A DNA stretch of 64,000 nucleotides from an uncultured Acidobacteriota bacterium (GTDB taxonomy: Bacteria > Acidobacteriota > Thermoanaerobaculia > UBA5066 > Gp7-AA6): positions 506,905 through 570,904 of the forward strand of contig CAVZDB010000008.1 of assembly GCA_963773905.1 (NCBI GenBank), written 5' to 3'. Below, piece after piece: positions 5,861-14,126 of this stretch; the first letter of the stretch is position 1, and each line of letters opens with the position of its first letter. The translations under genes were made by a program, and so were the position numbers. The notes below the pieces were generated by a model that was not told where the DNA came from, ran no database searches, and was given only the letters and a program-made list of their open reading frames with translations.

Positions 5861-6172
5861 ATGTTGACCGTCGACACTGCCTTCGATCGACTCGGAACGG
5901 CACTCCGGCAGCGGGGATACGCCTTCAGCAGGGAGGAGACGCCGGAAGTCGTCGGCGACCGGATCTCCGTCTACACGTCCCCGAACATGTCGGTGCGCAT
6001 CGTCTGGTCGAGCAAGGCGAGGCTGCTGATCCTCCAGGTCAAGGTCGAGGGCGAATGGGTCGAGTTCGCGCGGCGCGGCTTCGGGCCCAACGGCCTGGAG
6101 GACACCGCCGTGGAGGCGCTGGTGCGCGCCGTGTTCAACGAGGTCGCGGAGACCTCGACGGACGCCGGGTGA
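5861..6172 (+). CDS. Hypothetical small protein (103 aa)
   Basis: Clean ORF with an ATG start, preceded by TAGAAT at 5828-5833; no recognisable domain. Confidence 0.4.
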   Translation: MLTVDTAFDRLGTALRQRGYAFSREETPEVVGDRISVYTSPNMSVRIVWSSKARLLILQVKVEGEWVEFARRGFGPNGLEDTAVEALVRAVFNEVAETSTDAG

Positions 6173-6480
6173 CGTCGCCGACGCGGCGCTCGGGATCTGC
6201 CGTTGGCGTCGTCTGCCGACGACGCCTCCTACTGCTGAGGGTCTGCCTTCGGTGGACGGATCGGGCACTGGCGGTCGGCTCGCCCAAAGGGGCTCGACCG
6301 ACCGCCTGATCCCTCGCTTCGCGTCGGCTCCCGCGGCGCGAGCCTCCTCCGCTGCCCTCGCGGAGACTTCTCGCGCCGCGGGCGATACGAGCAGTGCCTC
6401 TCGCGAGACGTGAAGGGGGCTTGATCCGAGGACGCGCATAGTGACACTCCCCTCGAGGCCATGACGGACGACGCGGCGCA

Positions 6481-7758
6481 ATGAGCGCGCGCCTCTCGCA
6501 GGGGCTCCGCGAGGTCCTGCGGCGGCTGCTCGGCCGGGCGCCGTCAGATTGGGCGGGACCCGATCCGGCGACCGAGGCCGTCCGGCGCGCCGCCCCTCCG
6601 GAGGAGGAGAACCGGCACGAAGTCGTCTGTCTCGGGCATACCGTCGACGATTTCGACGCGCGGCTGGCGTCGTCGGCCGCCGCGGGGCATCGCCTGTTCC
6701 TGGCGTCGGCCGGTCCGGTGGCCGAAGACGCGCCGTACGCGATCCGCGAACGGGGACCGCGCCTCTTCGAGGTCTTCCTCCGGGACCCCGCGGATGCCTT
6801 CGACGCGCTCGACCGGCTTCGGCGCGACGCGTCGCTGGGCGCGACGGTCGCCGTGGTCAAGGAGCGCGCGTGGCTCCCGCTCGCCGAGCGGCTCCGCGCG
6901 GAGCGCGGCTGGCGCGTGCTGGACCTCTCGGCAGGCGAGGGCCGGAGCCTCGGCGAGGCCGCGTTCGCCGCGGCGCTCGCGGACACCTTCCCGAAGATCT
7001 CGGTCGTCGTCGTCACGTTCAACAACCGTGAGCTCAACCGGGCCTGCCTCGAGAGCGTGTTCGCGCGCACCGGGTGGCCGCGCTACGAGGTGCTGGCCGT
7101 CGACAACGGGTCCACGGACGGGACTCCGGACCTCCTGGCGGAGCTCGCGCGCGCCCATGCGAATCTTCGGGTGATCGCGTTTCCCGAGAATCGGGGCTTT
7201 CCCGCCGCCTGCAACGCCGGTCTCGCGGCGGCGTCGGGAGATCCGGTCGTCCTCTTGAACAACGACACCGTCGTGACGCGCGGATGGCTGACCGCGCTCC
7301 ATCGCCACCTGGAGGCGAACACGAGGCTCGGGCTCGTGGGTCCGGTGACCAACGCGATCGCCAACGAGGCGCGGATCGAGGTCGGCTACGCGGACCTCGC
7401 CGAGCTGCCGCGCTGGGCGGCGGACTGGATCCGACGCCACGACGGCGAGACGTTCGACATCCCGATGCTTGCGTTCTTCTGCGTCGCGGCGCGGCGCGAG
7501 GTGCTCGCGGCCGTCGGTCCGCTCGACGAGCGCTTCGGCCTCGGGCTCTTCGAGGACGGCGACTACTGCCGCCGCGTGCGCGCGAAGGGATGGGACATCC
7601 GCTGCGCTCGCGATGCCTTCGTGCATCACTGGCAGAATGCCTCGTTCCGCCGTCTGGGGAAGGAGGCGTACTTCGCGCTCTACGAGGAGAACCGGCGCAA
7701 GTACGAGGCGAAGTGGGGGGAGAGGGCGGAATCTCCGAAGGAGACCGCGCCGCCCTAG
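6481..7758 (+). CDS. Family 2 glycosyltransferase with N-terminal domain of unknown function
   Basis: 'ISVVVVTFNNRELNRACLESV...LAVDNGSTDGT...NRGFPAACNAGL...LNND' GT-A/GT2 signature (DxD-type motifs). Confidence 0.8.
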   Translation: MSARLSQGLREVLRRLLGRAPSDWAGPDPATEAVRRAAPPEEENRHEVVCLGHTVDDFDARLASSAAAGHRLFLASAGPVAEDAPYAIRERGPRLFEVFLRDPADAFDALDRLRRDASLGATVAVVKERAWLPLAERLRAERGWRVLDLSAGEGRSLGEAAFAAALADTFPKISVVVVTFNNRELNRACLESVFARTGWPRYEVLAVDNGSTDGTPDLLAELARAHANLRVIAFPENRGFPAACNAGLAAASGDPVVLLNNDTVVTRGWLTALHRHLEANTRLGLVGPVTNAIANEARIEVGYADLAELPRWAADWIRRHDGETFDIPMLAFFCVAARREVLAAVGPLDERFGLGLFEDGDYCRRVRAKGWDIRCARDAFVHHWQNASFRRLGKEAYFALYEENRRKYEAKWGERAESPKETAPP

Positions 7759-10382
7759 GCGCTGTGCGGGACCACGGCCTCGAGCGCGCGGCGCAGGGCT
7801 GCGGCGACCTCCGGGCCGTGCTGCAGCACGAAGTCGGCGTGCGAGCCCGGGACCCGAAGGATCTCGCATTCGCCGCGGGCCAGCCGGCTCCAGGCCGCCG
7901 AGAATCCCCGGCGCTCTCCCTCCGCGCTCTCGATCAGCAGGACTCGTCCGTCGAACGGGGCCGGATCCCACGCGGCGGCGGCGGCCACGTAGGAGGCCCG
8001 GCGGCCGACGCGCTCCCAGTGGTGGCCCTCGGCGACGAGCCCGCGCGCCCCGACGCGCCCCATCCGCAGGACGTAGCCCGTCCGGCCGCGCTTCATCGCG
8101 CGGAGGACGGAGAGGTGATACGCGAGCCGCCGGCGGAAGTAGGAAACCCGCTCGAGGAGGCGGACCGCGCCCGGCGCATTGCGGCTCAGCCACACGCGCC
8201 GCCGCCGCGCGGGCGTGGGGTACGGCGCGTCCAGCAGGGCGAGGAGGGCCACCGACGCACCGTTCTCCCGCAGCCGCCGCGCCATCTCGAACGCGACCGT
8301 CCCGCCGACGCACTCGCCCACCAGAGCGTAGGGACCCTGCGGCGACCTCGCGCGCAGCTGCTCGAGGAAGCGCGCGGCGAGGACGGGCGCCGGGGGATGC
8401 GGCGGGGGCCCCGGGCGGAAGCAGAGGAACGGGAAGCCGCCTCCGGTCGATCGCGCGATCCTCCGGGCTCCGAAGACGTTCTCGCGGTCCCCCGCGCCTC
8501 CGGGGACCACGAAGACCGGCGTCCGGGTGCCGTCCTGGAGAACCAGCGGCGCGCTCTCCGTCGAGCCCCCGCTGCGGCGCGCCAAAGCCGCCAGGGCCGA
8601 GGGCGTCGGCGCCTCGAGCAGCTCCGCGGCGGAGAGCTCGACGCCGAGGGCGTCGGAGACGGCGGCGAGCGCCGTGACCGCCGCGAGGGAGTCGCCGCCG
8701 AGCTCGAAGAAGTCGTCGTCGACGCCGACGTGGCTCAGGTCGAGCGCCTCGCGGAACGCGCTTGCGACCGCGTCCTCCATCGGCTCGCACGGCGCGCGGA
8801 AGGGCGTCGCGAGCGGGGGCCGGCCGGAAGGCGGCGCCGGCAGCGCGGCGCGATCGACCTTTCCCGACGGCGTGCGCGGCAGCGCGTCCAGGAAGACGAA
8901 GGTGGACGGACACATCGAAGCCGGCAGCCGTTGCTCGAGCGACCGCCGCAGCGCGGAGAGCGTCGGCGGATTCTCGGTGCGGCGGACCACCCAGGCGGCG
9001 AGGCGCGTTCCCCGCGGCGTCTCGAACCCGCCCGCGGCCGCCTCGCGCACCCCCGCGACGTCGAGCAGCGCGGACTCCACCTCGGCGGTCTCGACGCGGT
9101 GGCCGCGCACCTTGAGGCGCGCGTCCTTGCGGCCGGCGTGCAGGAGGCAGCCGTCCGGCAGGAGGCGTCCGAGATCGCCGGTGCGGTAGAGGCGCCATCC
9201 CGCGCGGCCGGGCACCGGGAGAAACGCGGCGGCCGTCGCGCCGGGATCCTTCCAGTAGCCGAGCGCGAGCGTGCGGGCGCGCACGGCGATCTCGCCCTCG
9301 CCCTCGGTCTCGCGGCCCTCCTCGTCGAGCAGCACGACCTCGGTCTCGTCCACCCCGTACCCGAGCGGCGTGCCGCCGGGCCAGGGCGTGTCGTGCCCGG
9401 CCGACCAGTGCCGAATCACGTTCATCTCGGTCGCGCCGAATCCCAGATGGAAGGCGCAGGAGCGGGGGAAGCGGTTGCGGAAAAGGTCGAAGTCGGAGGC
9501 GAAAATGGGCTCGCCGCCGAGCCGCACGATGCGCAGGCTCGAGAGCTCCTCGCTCCCGTCGAGCGTCGCGGAGAAGCTGCGGAAGACGCTGGGAACCGAG
9601 TGACAGATCGTGATGGCTTCGCCGGCCAGGAACCGGGGCAGCCGGCGCAGGCCTTCGCCGCCGAGCGCGTAGGGGCACACCGCGGCCCCGTTGAGGAGAG
9701 CGCCGAAGACGTCGGACACCGATGCGCCCACGGAGACCGACGCGAGGAGCGCGAGCCGGTCGTCCGGCCGGATCGAGAGGGCGGCCGCGAGCTTGCGGAC
9801 GTTGTGGAGGACGTTGCGGTGGCTCTGCATCACGCCCTTGGGGGCGCCGGTCGAGCCCGACGTGAACAGCACGTACGCGAGCGCGTCGGGCGAGACCTCC
9901 CGGAGCTCGAGGGCAGCCGTCGTCTCGGCGCGGGGTCCGCCGTCCTCGAGCAGCTCTTCGGCGCACCAGATCGGGGCCCGGCCGCCGGCGAGGCCGCGCG
10001 CGGCGTCGCGCCTCGCTTCTCCCGCGACCAGGACCGCCGCGTCCAGGCCGCTCCCGATCGCCGAGAGCCGCGCCGCGGGCAGTCCCGGGTCGAGCGGGAC
10101 GTAGAAGCGTCCGGCCCGAAGGGCGCCCAGCATCGCCGCGAAGAGCGTCGCGCCGGGGTCCGCGAGGAGGGCGATCGGCCGGTCCGCTGACACGCCGGCG
10201 AGCCGCTCGGAGAAGGCGCGCGCGAAGCGAAGGGAGAGCGCGTCGAGCTCCGCGTAGGTCGTCAGACGGCCCGTAGCCGGCTCGCGGACGGCCGGCCGAT
10301 CGGGAACCGCGCGCGCGACCGACGCGAATCTTTCCCCGATCGATCGCTCGATCTCGGCCTTCTCGAAGGGGAGCGCGTCCAT
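7755..10382 (-). CDS. NRPS-like single module: adenylation - peptidyl carrier - thioesterase (A-PCP-TE), no condensation domain
   Basis: A-domain cores 'LAYVLFTSGSTGAPKGV', 'YRTGDLGR', 'GRKDARLKVRGHRVETAEVE', 'PSGKVDR'. PCP motif 'FFELGGDSLAAV'. C-terminal alpha/beta-hydrolase TE whose nucleophile motif is 'GECVGG', with Cys at 8310-8312. Confidence 0.85.
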   Translation of the reverse strand: MDALPFEKAEIERSIGERFASVARAVPDRPAVREPATGRLTTYAELDALSLRFARAFSERLAGVSADRPIALLADPGATLFAAMLGALRAGRFYVPLDPGLPAARLSAIGSGLDAAVLVAGEARRDAARGLAGGRAPIWCAEELLEDGGPRAETTAALELREVSPDALAYVLFTSGSTGAPKGVMQSHRNVLHNVRKLAAALSIRPDDRLALLASVSVGASVSDVFGALLNGAAVCPYALGGEGLRRLPRFLAGEAITICHSVPSVFRSFSATLDGSEELSSLRIVRLGGEPIFASDFDLFRNRFPRSCAFHLGFGATEMNVIRHWSAGHDTPWPGGTPLGYGVDETEVVLLDEEGRETEGEGEIAVRARTLALGYWKDPGATAAAFLPVPGRAGWRLYRTGDLGRLLPDGCLLHAGRKDARLKVRGHRVETAEVESALLDVAGVREAAAGGFETPRGTRLAAWVVRRTENPPTLSALRRSLEQRLPASMCPSTFVFLDALPRTPSGKVDRAALPAPPSGRPPLATPFRAPCEPMEDAVASAFREALDLSHVGVDDDFFELGGDSLAAVTALAAVSDALGVELSAAELLEAPTPSALAALARRSGGSTESAPLVLQDGTRTPVFVVPGGAGDRENVFGARRIARSTGGGFPFLCFRPGPPPHPPAPVLAARFLEQLRARSPQGPYALVGECVGGTVAFEMARRLRENGASVALLALLDAPYPTPARRRRVWLSRNAPGAVRLLERVSYFRRRLAYHLSVLRAMKRGRTGYVLRMGRVGARGLVAEGHHWERVGRRASYVAAAAAWDPAPFDGRVLLIESAEGERRGFSAAWSRLARGECEILRVPGSHADFVLQHGPEVAAALRRALEAVVPHSA

Positions 10383-10552
10383 AGCCGGCCGTTATTCGGC
10401 GGTCTTCGTCGGGCCGGGACTCGTCCCCGCCCGCAGTCGGCCGCGACCCGACCACCGAAGGCAAGCCCCCGGCAGTAGGGAACGTCGCGCCAGGCGCGCG
10501 ACGGTATCGCCGCCCCTACGTTCCTGTGGCGGTGCAGGGGAGAGGTCGCGGC

Positions 10553-12466
10553 TCATTCCGGCGCGCCGTACAGCGCCTGCAGGCGCGAATAGAACTCGAC
10601 GTTCCCCGGCCCGTGCTCGGGCGGGCCGATGCCGGAGGCCTTCCAGCCGCCGAACGGGGCGCTCGCGTCGGCGTCCGCCGTCGACAGGTTCCACTTGAGC
10701 ACGCCGCTTCGCGCCTCGCGGGCGAAGCGTTCGTTCCACGGTCCCGGCCCCGCGAAGAGCGCGGCGACGAGGCCCTGCGGCACGCCGTTGGCGAGGGCGA
10801 GCGCCTCCTCGAACGTCCGCGCCCGCTGAAGGACGAGGACGGGGCCGAAGGTTTCCTCCTGGACGATCGCGCTCTCGGGGGCCGCGTCGACGACCACGGT
10901 CGGCGGATGCCAGGCTCCCGCCCCGGCCGGAGCGGGAGAGCCGCGGTGCGGCGTCAGAACGCGCGCGCCGTCTGCGGCGGCCTCGGCGACCGCGGCCGCC
11001 ACGCGGTCCCGCGCCGGCGCGGAGACGAGCGGGCCGATCTCGGTCTCCGGATCGAGCGGGTCGCCCCAGCAGAGCGCGGCGACGGCGGCGAGCAGGCGCT
11101 CCAGGAGCTCGTCGAACAGCGAGTCGGCGAGGATGGCGCGCCGGTTCGCGGTGCACCGCTGTCCGGCGAACGCGAAGGCGCCGCGCGCCAGCGCCTCGGC
11201 CGCCCGCTCGAGGTCCGCGCCCGTCCAGACGATCGCGGCGTTGTTGCCGCCGAGCTCCGCCTGCAGCGGGATCCGGCGCCGCGCGCAGATCTCCTGCGCG
11301 GCCCAGCCCGCGGCCGAGGAGCCCGACAGCGTCACCGCATCGACGCTCGGATCGCTCATGACCGCCGCCGCGGCGCGATGGTCTCCGGCGACGAGGCCGA
11401 CGGCGCCGGCCGGGAGGCCCGCCGCGCGCGCCAGCTCGAGAGAGCGCTCGGCGAGGACGGTCCCCGCCGGCGCGGGCTTCCAGACCACGGTGTTCCCGAG
11501 CGCGAGGGCCGGACCGAGCTTGCCCCAGGGGATCGCGAGCGGGTTGTTCCAGGGCGTGATCGCGGCGATCACGCCGAGCGGCACGCGGCGAAAAGCGGAG
11601 CCAGGCCCCGCGGGCGCCGGCGCGGGCAAGGCGAGCGCCGCGGCGTGCCGAAGGAGCTCGGCGGTGCGCCGCACTTCCGCGCCGCCCTGCGTCACGGGCT
11701 TGCCGATGTCGACCGCCATCCGCCGCGCGAGCTCCGGACTCTCGAGCTCCAGCCGTTCCGCGAGGGCGAGGAGCACGCGGGCGCGGGCGTCGGGCGGGAG
11801 CGCGCTCCACCGCGCGTTCGCCGCGCGCGCGGAGCGTGCGGCCTGCGATCCGTCTTGCGCGAGCGCGGTCCGCGACGCGGTTCGCGCGGGCGCGTCGTTC
11901 GCGGATTCCGATCCTGCGTGGATCCGGGCGAGGAGCTCCGCGACGCTCGCGAAGCGCGCGGCGCGTCCCTCGAGGTAGCGGCGGGTCACGGCGGCGTGGA
12001 GCGGGTCGTCGCTCCCGACGGCGTCCTCGGCGATCCAGACCGCGAGACCCCGCTGGTAGGCGTCGAGCACCGTGGCGCGGACGCAGCCGTGGAGGTGCAC
12101 GCCGGCGACGAGGAGAGTGTCGGTCCGGGCGGCCGCGAGCGCGCGGTCGAGCTCGGGCGCGGAGAAGGCGGAGAAGAAGGCCTTCGAGACCGTCGCCTCG
12201 CCGGCCGCGGGCGAAAGCTCCGGCGGTTCCGCATGGCCCGGGGTGCCGCGGACGCAGCGCAGCCGCCGCTGCTCCCTCCAGTGCGGCATGGCGCCCTCGC
12301 CCGAGGCGTCGACGGACGTCACGGCGTGGATGACGGGCACGCCCGCCGCGCGCGCTCCCGCGAGCAGCCGCCGCGCGTTCGCGACCACGACCCGCGCCGC
12401 CGGCTCCAGTCCCGGGGCGCTCAGGAAATCGTCTTGCAGATCGACGAGGAGAAGGACCGGCCTCAT
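10553..12466 (-). CDS. Isochorismatase-family hydrolase fused to aldehyde dehydrogenase
   Basis: The N-terminal ~190 aa is isochorismatase-like ('LLLVDLQDDF...LVAGVHLHGCVRATVLDA'). The C-terminal ~440 aa is ALDH ('ELGGNNAAIV', catalytic 'FAGQRCTA'). Its start overlaps the upstream stop (ATGA at 12463-12466). Confidence 0.8.
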   Translation of the reverse strand: MRPVLLLVDLQDDFLSAPGLEPAARVVVANARRLLAGARAAGVPVIHAVTSVDASGEGAMPHWREQRRLRCVRGTPGHAEPPELSPAAGEATVSKAFFSAFSAPELDRALAAARTDTLLVAGVHLHGCVRATVLDAYQRGLAVWIAEDAVGSDDPLHAAVTRRYLEGRAARFASVAELLARIHAGSESANDAPARTASRTALAQDGSQAARSARAANARWSALPPDARARVLLALAERLELESPELARRMAVDIGKPVTQGGAEVRRTAELLRHAAALALPAPAPAGPGSAFRRVPLGVIAAITPWNNPLAIPWGKLGPALALGNTVVWKPAPAGTVLAERSLELARAAGLPAGAVGLVAGDHRAAAAVMSDPSVDAVTLSGSSAAGWAAQEICARRRIPLQAELGGNNAAIVWTGADLERAAEALARGAFAFAGQRCTANRRAILADSLFDELLERLLAAVAALCWGDPLDPETEIGPLVSAPARDRVAAAVAEAAADGARVLTPHRGSPAPAGAGAWHPPTVVVDAAPESAIVQEETFGPVLVLQRARTFEEALALANGVPQGLVAALFAGPGPWNERFAREARSGVLKWNLSTADADASAPFGGWKASGIGPPEHGPGNVEFYSRLQALYGAPE

Positions 12467-13540
12467 TCCGCCCGGCGCGCGCGCCGCTCGACCCTCGCGG
12501 CGATGCGCCGGCCCATCTCCTCCGTGCCGACGACGATGGTGCCCGGGGACGCCACGTCGAAGGTCCGGAAACCGAATTGGAGGACCTCCCCGGTCGCCTC
12601 CTCGATCCAGGCCGCCTCGCGGTGGAGGCCGAAGCTCTCGCGCAGCATCATGGCGAGCGAGGAGATCTGCCCGATGGGGTTTGCGCGGTCTTTGCCGGCG
12701 AGGTCCAGCGCGGAGCCGTGGTTGGTCTGGTAGACCGCCGCGCCCGTCTCGGAGAAGTTGCCCGAGAACGACATGCCGCGCGACGCGAGCAGGACGGCGC
12801 CGAGGTCGGCGAGCACGTCGCCGAAGAGGTTCGACGCGGCGATCACGTCGAACGCGAGCGGCTCCTGGATGAGCAGGTACGCGGTGAGGTCGATGTCGAG
12901 GACGCGCAGCGCGACGCCGGACGCCGCCGCCGCCTCGCGGCCGAGGTCGCGCCAGAGCGCGCTGACCGTCGGAAGGCCGCCGTCCTTGATCACGACCGTG
13001 AGCTTCTTGCGCCGCGACGCGGCGAGCTCGGCCGCCACCGAGAGGAGGCGGCGGACGTGCTCCTCGGCGTAGTGAAAGGCGTGGCGGCAGAGCCGTCCGC
13101 GCTTGGGGTCGAGGAGCCGTCCCACTCGCCGAGGTATTCGCCGCCCGTGTTTTCGCGGACGACGAGGATGTCGGCGCCCTCCACGCTCGAGCCCTTGAGT
13201 CGGCCGGCCTCCTGGAGGGCCGGAACGGGCCGGAGGGGAGAGAGCTTGCAGAAGAGATCGAAGCGCGGGCGGAGATCGTAGACGAAGCGGCTGCCCCCGG
13301 GCCCGGCGAGGACGGCGCCCCCTCCGCCGAAGACGTTCTCGCAGAAGCCGGAGACCTCCTCCGTCAGCGCCTTCCCGGAGAGCATCTCGGCGTCCCGCCC
13401 GATGGGACCTCCCCTCGTGATGGTGAAGCGCGCCCCCCCGCCTCCGCCGCCGACAGCACCTCGAGGGCCGCCGCGAGGACTTCGGGCCGACTCCTTCCCC
13501 GGGGAGGACGCCGACCGCGAAGCTCCCGCTCGACGGCGCG
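12463..13540 (-). pseudogene. Isocitrate/isopropylmalate dehydrogenase family (LeuB/tartrate dehydrogenase-like), >=3 frameshifts
   Basis: The C-terminal half is intact in ORF 12463..13812 ('...KKLTVVIKDGGLP...'). 'ILVVRENTGGEY' sits in the ORF 12990..13643 frame. The N-terminal 'AVGVLPGEGVGP' + 'PEVLAAALEVLSAAEAGG' pieces lie in two other frames. One frame switch coincides with a C7 run at 13431-13441; the 5' boundary is approximate. Confidence 0.7.
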
Positions 13541-13776
13541 AGCCGCGGCTCCCGGAAGACGGCGGCCGTCCACCGGCGTTCGCTCCTGACGAGATCGGAT
13601 GCTTGGCGCAAGCGGACCCCTTTTGCGCCGGAAGTGTATCCAACGCGGACGGTCCCGAGCCAGTCGCACGGGCGGACCGCAGGAAGGGGGAGGCGGCCGC
13701 CCGGGCGGCTCGCCTCGGGATGTCCTCCGAGCCTCCGCGCCGCGGTTCTCGGGCCGCGCGGGACGGCGGCCCGCGG

Positions 13777-14060
13777 ACTAAGCCGCGGGACGCGACCGGA
13801 CCCGCGACGCAACCACCTCCGCGACGTGCTCGGCGTCCCGGCCGACGCCGTGGATCATGGTCGAGGAGAGCGCGTAGAGGAAGAACAGCCCCACGAAGTA
13901 CAGGCCGGGCTCGCCGGCGGCGACGCCGCGCTCCTGGATCGGCTCGTGGTGCGCGCCGAACCCGAAGGTCGATCGGGGCTTCTTCCGATCCGCCCGCGAC
14001 AGCGCCTCGGCCGCCCGGCTCCAGGCCCGGCGCCTGTAGTGCTCGCGCGCCAGCTCGAGG
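13777..14060 (-). pseudogene. Remnant of an FAD-dependent monooxygenase C-terminus (gene fragment, no start)
   Basis: Minus-strand translation '...EPGLYFVGLFFLYALSSTMIHGVGRDAEHVAEVVAS...*' resembles the conserved C-terminal tail of flavin monooxygenase/CzcO-like oxidoreductases. It is bounded upstream by an in-frame TAA, with no room for a full gene. Confidence 0.3.
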
Positions 14061-14126
14061 TCCTTCAGCGCGAGCCTCGGAGCTTAACCTCCCCGCAGTG
14101 GGCCGGGCGGCGTACCCGCGCCGGCG

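Follow-up and report, generated by a model that had tools for sequence, protein, structure and literature searches.

A Cysteine-Nucleophile Type I Thioesterase in a Condensation-Domain-Free Synthetase Encoded by a Conserved Acidobacteriota Operon

This study analyzed a 64,000-nucleotide stretch of DNA (the window) from an uncultured Acidobacteriota bacterium (NCBI GenBank assembly GCA_963773905.1, contig CAVZDB010000008.1, positions 506,905 to 570,904 of the forward strand). One gene in the window encodes a protein related to nonribosomal peptide synthetases (NRPSs), in which an adenylation (A), a peptidyl carrier (PCP), and a thioesterase (TE) domain follow one another without a condensation (C) domain. 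The gene is the last of a three-gene operon whose carriers are Acidobacteriota (Thermoanaerobaculia and relatives), and the two upstream genes encode a LeuB-like dehydrogenase and a fusion protein in which an isochorismatase-family cysteine hydrolase is joined to an aldehyde dehydrogenase (ICH-ALDH). Taking all parts together, we hold with modest confidence that the A-PCP-TE protein carries a type I TE with a Cys-Asp-His triad, which would release a non-amino di-acid by forming a bond.

A cysteine occupies the nucleophile elbow of the thioesterase

A Pfam search of the 875-residue translation identified the domains AMP-binding (residues 21-377), AMP-binding_C (434-508), PP-binding (538-600), and Thioesterase (PF00975, 658-861), the last with an E-value of 9.7e-16 and a score of 59.1 bits against a cut-off of 26.4. 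This order bore out the A-PCP-TE architecture proposed in a first-pass annotation, which had been made from the letters of the window alone. The NCBIfam matches were generic only ("amino acid adenylation domain" and NRPS). The TE sits directly downstream of the carrier domain, of which the GGDS565 motif is invariant. No C domain was detected by Pfam in the protein or among the open reading frames (ORFs) scanned in the window, and no further NRPS or polyketide synthase (PKS) gene was found among the large ORFs scanned across it. A larger biosynthetic cluster was considered and rejected; the other large ORFs encode kinases, channels, peptidases, and S-layer or DUF1800 proteins. The coordinates of all features are listed in Table 1.

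The translation holds the stretch PQGPYALVGECVGGTVAFEMARRL, and the reverse complement of positions 8327 to 8295 reads GCT CTG GTG GGC GAG TGC GTC GGC GGG ACG GTC (ALVGECVGGTV). A phmmer search against the Protein Data Bank (PDB) aligned Cys691 with the nucleophilic serine of the NocB (GGWSFGG) and EntF (GYSLGG) TEs and with the cysteine of AB3403 (GWCFGG). In the same search, Asp718 (LLDAP) aligned with the catalytic Asp of EntF, NocB, and AB3403, and His848 (PGSHAD) aligned with the His of NocB and AB3403. We also employed AlphaFold2 for modeling the TE from a 23-sequence alignment (mean pLDDT, 89.6). In TE numbering, the model placed the cysteine between strand 86-91 and helix 94-107, that is, in the nucleophile elbow, the triad Asp immediately after strand 112-118, and the triad His after strand 240-245, where the last helix begins; the core is of the strand-helix type, and a four-helix lid spans residues 125-204. 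The first-pass annotation had read a TGC codon (gca on the plus strand) at 8310-8312 and assigned it to the elbow. The sequence and the coordinates were exact, the alignment and the model agree on the elbow, and the Asp and His of the triad, which that annotation had left to be checked, are both present. These comparisons confirmed a cysteine in place of the usual serine as the predicted nucleophile, and the domain is, on the same grounds, a type I thioesterase with a Cys-Asp-His triad that is predicted to be functional.

Table 1. Coordinates in the window of the A-PCP-TE gene, its domains and catalytic residues, and the neighboring genes.
Feature	Position	Strand	Evidence or remarks
A-PCP-TE (NRPS-like) gene, 875 aa	7755-10382	-	ATG 10382-10380, stop TAG 7757-7755; translation, Pfam, homologue coverage 97-100%
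Adenylation domain, residues 21-508	8859-10322	-	Pfam and NCBIfam
Peptidyl carrier domain, residues 538-600	8583-8771	-	PF00550 match
Phosphopantetheine-attachment Ser565 in LGGDS (codon)	8688-8690	-	Ser invariant across the family
Type I thioesterase domain, residues ~613-875, 80-residue four-helix lid	7758-8546	-	PF00975, AlphaFold2 model, Foldseek
Cys691, TE nucleophile in GECVGG (codon TGC)	8310-8312	-	
Asp718, triad Asp, position I, +27 from the nucleophile (codon GAC)	8229-8231	-	
His848, triad His in PGSHAD (codon CAC)	7839-7841	-	
ICH-ALDH fusion	10553-12466	-	Pfam, NCBIfam, PDB, motifs
LeuB-like (Iso_dh) dehydrogenase, first operon gene, start approximate	12463-13650	-	Pfam
GT2 glycosyltransferase, convergent	6481-7758	+	Pfam; membership in the system uncertain

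The cysteine is conserved in a large clade

Approximately 108 of the 120 best homologues (41-100% identity) carried an elbow of the G[DE]C[VMAI]GG type. We aligned 113 full-length family members by using MAFFT. In the Cys clade of this alignment, which comprises 108 homologue clusters (46-100% identity), the cysteine, the triad Asp, and the PCP Ser were each present in all 108 clusters, and the triad His was present in 104. The homologous codon was TGC in 15 independently assembled loci. Because of this constancy within the clade and across the loci, the cysteine is neither a chance occurrence nor a sequencing error.

A base-calling error for a serine codon (TCC or AGC), or a decaying pseudogene, is thus a vanishingly improbable explanation of the cysteine. 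A single base separates TGC from TCC, which is the codon of the serine clade described below, and the neighboring LeuB-like gene carries single-base indel errors in the same assembly. However, those errors are homopolymer deletions and not substitutions, and the A-PCP-TE gene of the window is full length and in frame, with every catalytic motif intact. On these comparisons, a base-call error at the cysteine codon is excluded for practical purposes.

The thioesterase resembles AB3403 rather than ObiF and SulM

The first-pass annotation had likened the TE to ObiF and SulM, which release the strained rings of obafluorin (β-lactone) and sulfazecin (β-lactam), and had cited these two as the characterized Cys TEs. 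That list was incomplete; the polymyxin TE, which performs a plain macrolactamization, and the BulbE TE, which forms an N-acylindole, also belong in it (PMC11792885). Because both of these enzymes use a cysteine, the residue alone is no sign of a strained ring. The polymyxin and BulbE TEs resemble the present enzyme in a cysteine that raises the reactivity of the acyl-enzyme and in nonhydrolytic release (PMC11792885); they differ in that they stand at the end of multimodular NRPSs, where they macrocyclize long peptides, and the comparison was made here by description only.

The β-lactone- and β-lactam-forming TEs combine the cysteine with a catalytic Asp moved to position II, in the loop that follows the next strand, and with an affinity to type II TEs; their position I is Gly or another non-acidic residue (PMC6668435, PMC11298585). 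AB3403 is the sole other solved Cys TE, and its Asp lies at the canonical position I (PMC6668435, PMC11298585). In the family studied here, the position-I Asp was invariant in the Cys clade and in the Ser clade alike.

A profile of the TE family was searched against all PDB sequences, and 60 matches were listed. The best was AB3403 (6.9e-29), which matched over positions 3-267, the whole domain. The structures 7CRN/7DXO, the Pks13 TE, EntF, and NocB followed at 1e-23 to 1e-24; the best-scoring stretch was full length for 7CRN/7DXO and the Pks13 TE and partial for EntF and NocB. ObiF1 scored 1e-5 over positions 22-116 only, and the type II TE RifR scored 2e-4 over a partial stretch. SulM was not among the 60 matches listed. 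A Foldseek search with the TE model returned 4ZXH, 7DXO, EntF, Vlm2, Pks13, and NocB, in the same order as the profile search, and its top 50 matches were all TEs. The elbow of the Cys clade reads [D/E]-C-[V/M/A/I], and the Q-C-N motif of SulM was absent from the TEs of the family.

These results suggest that the TE is a new, uncharacterized member of the AB3403 type, namely the Cys thioesterases with the Asp at position I. We infer that the cysteine is a lineage-level variant of an ordinary position-I TE, which would give a more reactive acyl-enzyme. AB3403 (ABBFA_003403, PDB 4ZXH/4ZXI, Acinetobacter baumannii) shares the cysteine (GWCFGG) and the position-I Asp and is the best match in both searches. 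It differs in being a C-A-PCP-TE termination module that acts on a condensed product, whereas the A-PCP-TE protein has no C domain; the two TEs are approximately 20% identical, and their lids differ (TM ~0.6). AB3403 is uncharacterized in product and release chemistry, so that no function can be transferred from it. Our literature search returned nothing usable on the AB3403 product and no paper on the three-gene combination, and the literature on the GXCXG elbow concerned mostly the SAT domains of fungal PKSs.

Strained-ring release of the ObiF and SulM kind is decidedly unlikely for this enzyme. In such a reaction, a Cys-bound acyl group with a β-hydroxyl or β-amino group, for example the C2 hydroxyl of a substituted malate relative to the C4 carboxyl, would close to a β-lactone or β-lactam. 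The cysteine is present, the substrates of the LeuB family are 3-substituted malates, which are β-hydroxy acids with respect to C4, and the acyl substrate expected here would be small and anionic, in a cationic TE pocket such as that described for SulM (PMC11298585). However, the Asp lies at position I and not at position II, and in ObiF an Asp moved to position I did not rescue the activity lost without the position-II Asp (PMC11298585, PMC6668435). ObiF and SulM also group with the type II TEs RifR and RedJ and act on peptidyl chains from modules that contain C domains. Furthermore, orthologous operons carry a serine TE, whereas a Cys-to-Ser change turns SulM to hydrolysis (PMC11298585). The TE thus departs from ObiF and SulM in three of the features that define them, and the analogy drawn in the first-pass annotation is not supported by the position of the Asp, the weak ObiF1 match, the missing Q-C-N motif, or the serine sister clade.

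Cysteine and serine nucleophiles alternate among the relatives

An exhaustive profile search of 1.84 billion representatives clustered at 50% identity returned 8,398 proteins at E<=1e-30. In the best 148 of these 8,398 proteins (231 TE-domain matches), the nucleophile column held Cys in 118 cases and Ser in 84. The first-pass annotation had called Cys TEs rare; this is true of the characterized enzymes but not of sequence space. The representatives also revealed G-E-C-[IV]-G-G TEs at the end of synthetases of 1,385 to 2,478 residues, and G-Y-C-F-G-G TEs at both internal and terminal positions in NRPSs of 2,200 to 4,500 residues. As judged from these counts, Cys TEs of this clade are common and essentially uncharacterized. 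Among the closest TE relatives (P0243-P0310), many take the form of TE-TE didomains in tandem or belong to NRPSs that carry both an internal and a terminal TE, and their pairs are often Cys and Cys, Cys and Ser, or an active and a degenerate elbow (GRCFGG with GIGFGG; GKDIGG with GRCTGG).

A sister clade of the family (P0109, P0111, and P0113-P0115, in loci L009, L010, and L085-L087) has a serine nucleophile in the motif GGHS[FL]GG, encoded by TCC. All of its loci with sufficient flanking sequence, that is, all but L009, contain the same three-gene operon, and the specificity code of the A domain is identical in the two clades. The Cys- and Ser-type TEs align end to end and share an invariant Asp and a conserved His; the N-terminal TE motif is FFCVHAIGG in the Ser clade and VFVVPGGAGD in the Cys clade. 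Because neither the operon nor the A-domain code differs between the two clades, the pathway appears to work with either nucleophile, which argues against a chemistry that strictly needs cysteine.

Unrelated loci with several A domains (L011, L016, L017, and L054, from Binatia, Syntrophobacteraceae, and others) encode TEs with the elbows GG[MWFA]C[NK]GG or GGFC[LM]GA and with Ala, Gly, or Leu in place of the position-I Asp. Three such TEs lie near 6973-7596, 9972-10499, and 15994-16545 of L017, and L054 has them at 6160-6450 and 9987-10142. A Cys-Asn motif without an Asp at position I is reminiscent of SulM and ObiF, and these TEs would therefore be better candidates for strained-ring release than the gene of the window.

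The adenylation domain probably selects a non-amino anionic acid

The specificity code of the A domain is G219, A220, S223, H261, R287, G289, G314, V322, I323, and K508, which correspond to positions 235-517 of GrsA. Across the 113 family members, the code is essentially invariant as G-A-S-H-[K/R]-G-G-V-I-K. Fungal A domains for D-hydroxy acids also begin with G-A, a likeness that serves only as a lead toward the ester-forming synthase considered below. In an alignment to the solved A domain of FscH (6ea3), Gly219 (codon 9726-9728) stands opposite Asp235 of the motif FD(235)xS, and Gly at position 235 was conserved in 112 of the 113 members. Asp235 is the conserved ligand of the α-amino group and is replaced in domains that activate keto acids (PMC11355689, PMC10949194). 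An A domain without this residue is not expected to select an α-amino acid with a β-nucleophile, such as the β-hydroxy-amino acid or 2,3-diaminopropionate chosen by the last module in systems of the ObiF and SulM type; a β-hydroxy di-acid may nevertheless be its substrate.

The pocket contains His278 and a basic residue at position 299 (Lys or Arg in the family; codon 9522-9524). The core and the lid of the TE include the nearly invariant residues R57, R78, R153, H157, R168, and Y199 (TE numbering), and such a cationic pocket fits an anionic acyl group. Enzymes of the LeuB family convert 2-hydroxy and 2-oxo acids into each other, and carboxylates are the products of ALDHs. The basic residue 299, the Arg, His, and Tyr residues of the TE, and the upstream ALDH and LeuB-family enzymes make a small anionic acid without an amino group the probable substrate; the most plausible such acid is a 2-oxo- or 2-hydroxy-dicarboxylate.

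The synthetase gene ends a conserved three-gene operon

The operon runs on one strand in the order LeuB-like dehydrogenase, ICH-ALDH fusion, and A-PCP-TE. This order recurs in L001-L008, L010, L025, and L080-L087. The closest species representative (L003, a metagenome-assembled genome of Thermoanaerobaculia), whose A-PCP-TE protein is 83% identical, has ten neighboring genes in the same order. The called boundaries of the operon genes abut or overlap in L082, L083, and L085-L087; among these, the ICH-ALDH and A-PCP-TE genes overlap in L082 and abut without a spacer in L085-L087. In L080 (10001-14506), ICH-ALDH-A-PCP-TE is one protein of 1,501 residues (P0061), and in L081 the hydrolase and the ALDH are separate genes. 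The P0061 fusion provides Rosetta-stone evidence for a common pathway of all four activities.

The ICH part retains an intact D-K-C triad (VDLQD, SK95, HGC128), and its nearest structures are N-carbamoylsarcosine-amidase-like. The ALDH part retains the ELGGNN and GQRC438TA motifs. No known catabolic context for the fusion was found among its 120 best homologues, all of which were this fusion again, without a family name and from the same lineages.

The LeuB-like gene is intact in L080-L087. In the window, it contains three single-base deletions (~13487, ~13437, and ~13118), and tblastn with an intact orthologue found it split over three frame segments. A nucleotide alignment with L003 revealed 1-nt gaps in G/C runs (GTCGG-CCCG, GGCGGG-GGGG, GACG-GC). 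The breaks follow the typical pattern of long-read homopolymer errors; a real pseudogene is also possible.

The verrucomicrobial loci L031 (310-12425) and L033 keep the LeuB-like and ICH-ALDH genes at 51-54% identity and add further genes. After ICH-ALDH follow two ORFs without a Pfam match (159 and 399 residues) and a surface protein with immunoglobulin (Ig) domains (Big_7/Glucodextran_B), and further on lie an A-PCP-TE with a fused N-terminal methyltransferase (Cys, in GTCMGG) and a convergent ABC exporter. The A-domain code of this methyltransferase-A-PCP-TE, read by eye, is G-Q-G-V-R-A-T-S-L-K.

On the other side of the A-PCP-TE gene, the convergent gene for a GT2 glycosyltransferase shares with it a palindromic CTAG (7755-7758), in which the two stop codons overlap, with neither a spacer nor a terminator between the genes. 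This arrangement was found in the window and in L001-L004, L007, L081, and L082; the GT2 gene was absent in L080, L083, L085, and L086. A short ORF at 13778-14083 (- strand) corresponds to no more than the C-terminal ~50 residues of an MSMEG_0569-type flavin oxidoreductase and may be a further case of truncation or frameshift; at this place, L003 is longer by ~2.8 kb.

Release probably forms a bond

On the basis of these findings, we propose a route of four steps. The two upstream enzymes would make a non-amino acid with a second anionic group, the likeliest being a 2-oxo- or 2-hydroxy-dicarboxylate. The A domain, which has Gly at position 235 and Lys or Arg at position 299, would adenylate this acid and load it onto the phosphopantetheine of Ser565. 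The acyl group would then pass to Cys691 by an energy-neutral transthioesterification. Its exit would form a bond instead of being hydrolytic, either by ester- or C-C-forming self-condensation or cyclization or by transfer to an external nucleophile. Because hydrolysis in a single module without a C domain would regenerate the substrate with the loss of ATP, a futile cycle, the release is probably nonhydrolytic. The nonhydrolytic off-loading proposed in the first-pass annotation is therefore probably right; the basis for it is the architecture without a C domain and not the cysteine. The intact catalytic residues of the A, PCP, and TE domains, the position-I triad, and the coupling of the operon genes, including the gene fusion, can be read directly from the sequence comparisons.

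Several findings weigh against this proposal. Both upstream enzymes score below every curated family cut-off, and their chemistry is known at the class level only: the LeuB-like enzyme reached 200 bits against the LeuB cut-off of 353 in NCBIfam, and the best family matches of the ALDH were α-ketoglutarate-semialdehyde and 2,5-dioxovalerate dehydrogenases, all below the cut-off (278 bits against 770 for the former). The LeuB-like enzyme (L082, 6998-8149, and orthologues; ~13100-13430 in the window) retains the Mg-binding and catalytic Asp, Lys, and Tyr residues, but it has Ser at the equivalent of the substrate-binding Arg104 (KISPLK for NLRPVK) and lacks ~9 residues of the loop preceding Arg94. 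It is a distinct subfamily with a probably altered substrate or reaction, and this reaction may not be the classical oxidative decarboxylation. The LeuB-like gene is frameshifted in this assembly, and if the frameshifts are real, the operon is defective here. Finally, the serine sister clade indicates that the cysteine is not obligatory and weakens the claim that it dictates the chemistry.

We further considered the possible forms of the exit step. The non-reducing A-T-TE synthetases of terphenylquinones, furanones, and butyrolactones (TdiA, AtrA, RalA) have the same architecture, lack Asp235, and release their products by self-condensation (PMC9047271). By analogy, the TE and the PCP could hold two identical 2-oxo acids supplied by the LeuB-like enzyme, which would be joined by a Claisen or Dieckmann condensation. 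The A-T-TE order without a C domain and the replaced Asp235 agree with such a dimerization, all characterized non-reducing NRPS-like enzymes condense two α-keto acids (PMC9047271), and LeuB-family enzymes yield 2-oxo acids. From the general chemistry of thiolases and ketosynthases, a thioester acyl-enzyme would also be the better Claisen partner. We nevertheless regard it as unlikely, for the known members have aromatic keto acids as substrates and a serine nucleophile in GYSYGG (10.1101/2020.03.25.008516), whereas Cys691 stands here and the pocket with His278 and Lys/Arg299 does not look aromatic-binding. The known enzymes have an aminotransferase partner, which is missing here, where the partners are a LeuB-like dehydrogenase and an amidohydrolase-ALDH fusion, and no search run related the TE specifically to those of TdiA, AtrA, or RalA.

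Transfer of the Cys-bound acyl group to an external acceptor, such as a sugar, a glycolipid, or a polysaccharide made by the neighboring GT2, appears quite unlikely. The model for it is the TE of Pks13 from Mycobacterium tuberculosis, which is not a hydrolase and transfers mycolate to trehalose; it was among the best matches (~1e-23 over the full length in the profile search, and listed from the sixth rank by Foldseek). The convergent GT2 gene with its overlapping stop codon in eight loci, the window included, and the neighborhood of a surface Ig-domain protein and an ABC exporter in the Verrucomicrobia version point in the same direction. However, the TEs of EntF, NocB, and Vlm2 score like that of Pks13, and the similarity is thus generic to type I TEs; moreover, the Pks13 TE has a serine nucleophile and a very long lipid substrate and is part of a PKS. 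The GT2 gene is lacking in at least four of the loci, and because of its convergent orientation it is not co-transcribed with the operon.

A synthase of oligo- or polyesters is very unlikely. In this case, the A domain would load a 2-hydroxy di-acid, and the TE would esterify it iteratively in the manner of EntF and Vlm2, with a GxCxGG center like that of polyhydroxyalkanoate (PHA) synthases, yielding a cyclic or linear oligoester. The ester-forming, oligomerizing TEs of EntF and Vlm2 are top fold matches, and a single module without a C domain would need a self-condensing release. The likeness of the Cys-Asp-His triad and of the G-x-C-V-G-G-T box to the lipase box of PhaC is an analogy only. 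A PhaC-like relationship of this box obtained no support from any profile search, no sequence search tied the TE to the PhaC families, PF00975 was its only Pfam match, and resemblance to the PhaC motif is generic to α/β hydrolases.

Significance

The characterized Cys TEs ObiF, SulM, and BulbE perform unusual chemistry, which makes GxCxG tempting as a flag for β-lactones and β-lactams. The present findings show that this flag alone is not diagnostic and that the position of the Asp (I or II) and the clade of the TE need to be examined before it is relied on. Environmental genomes contain numerous position-I Cys TEs of the AB3403 kind, and the cysteine residue itself is no surprise for the field. 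What has been delimited is a compact, conserved, and wholly uncharacterized operon with a Rosetta-stone fusion and a natural alternation of Cys and Ser. It is a tractable target for assigning, for the first time, a function to a Cys TE of the AB3403 type, and also to a bacterial A-T-TE without a C domain that apparently uses a non-aromatic substrate.

A wider reading is tentative and, in our estimate, somewhat unlikely: the operon may be a self-contained, undescribed pathway that is widespread in Acidobacteriota and, in Verrucomicrobia, exists in a methyltransferase-fused and exporter-linked version. Its C-less enzyme would load an aliphatic anionic 2-oxo- or 2-hydroxy-dicarboxylate and release it by a Cys-thioester self-condensation new to bacteria. 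If this is true, the pathway could yield a dimer of an aliphatic keto acid, a lactone derived from malate, or an oligo- or polyester that is built on a carrier protein by a logic like that of PHA synthases, and the natural pair of Cys and Ser clades would be a ready-made experiment on the contribution of the nucleophile.

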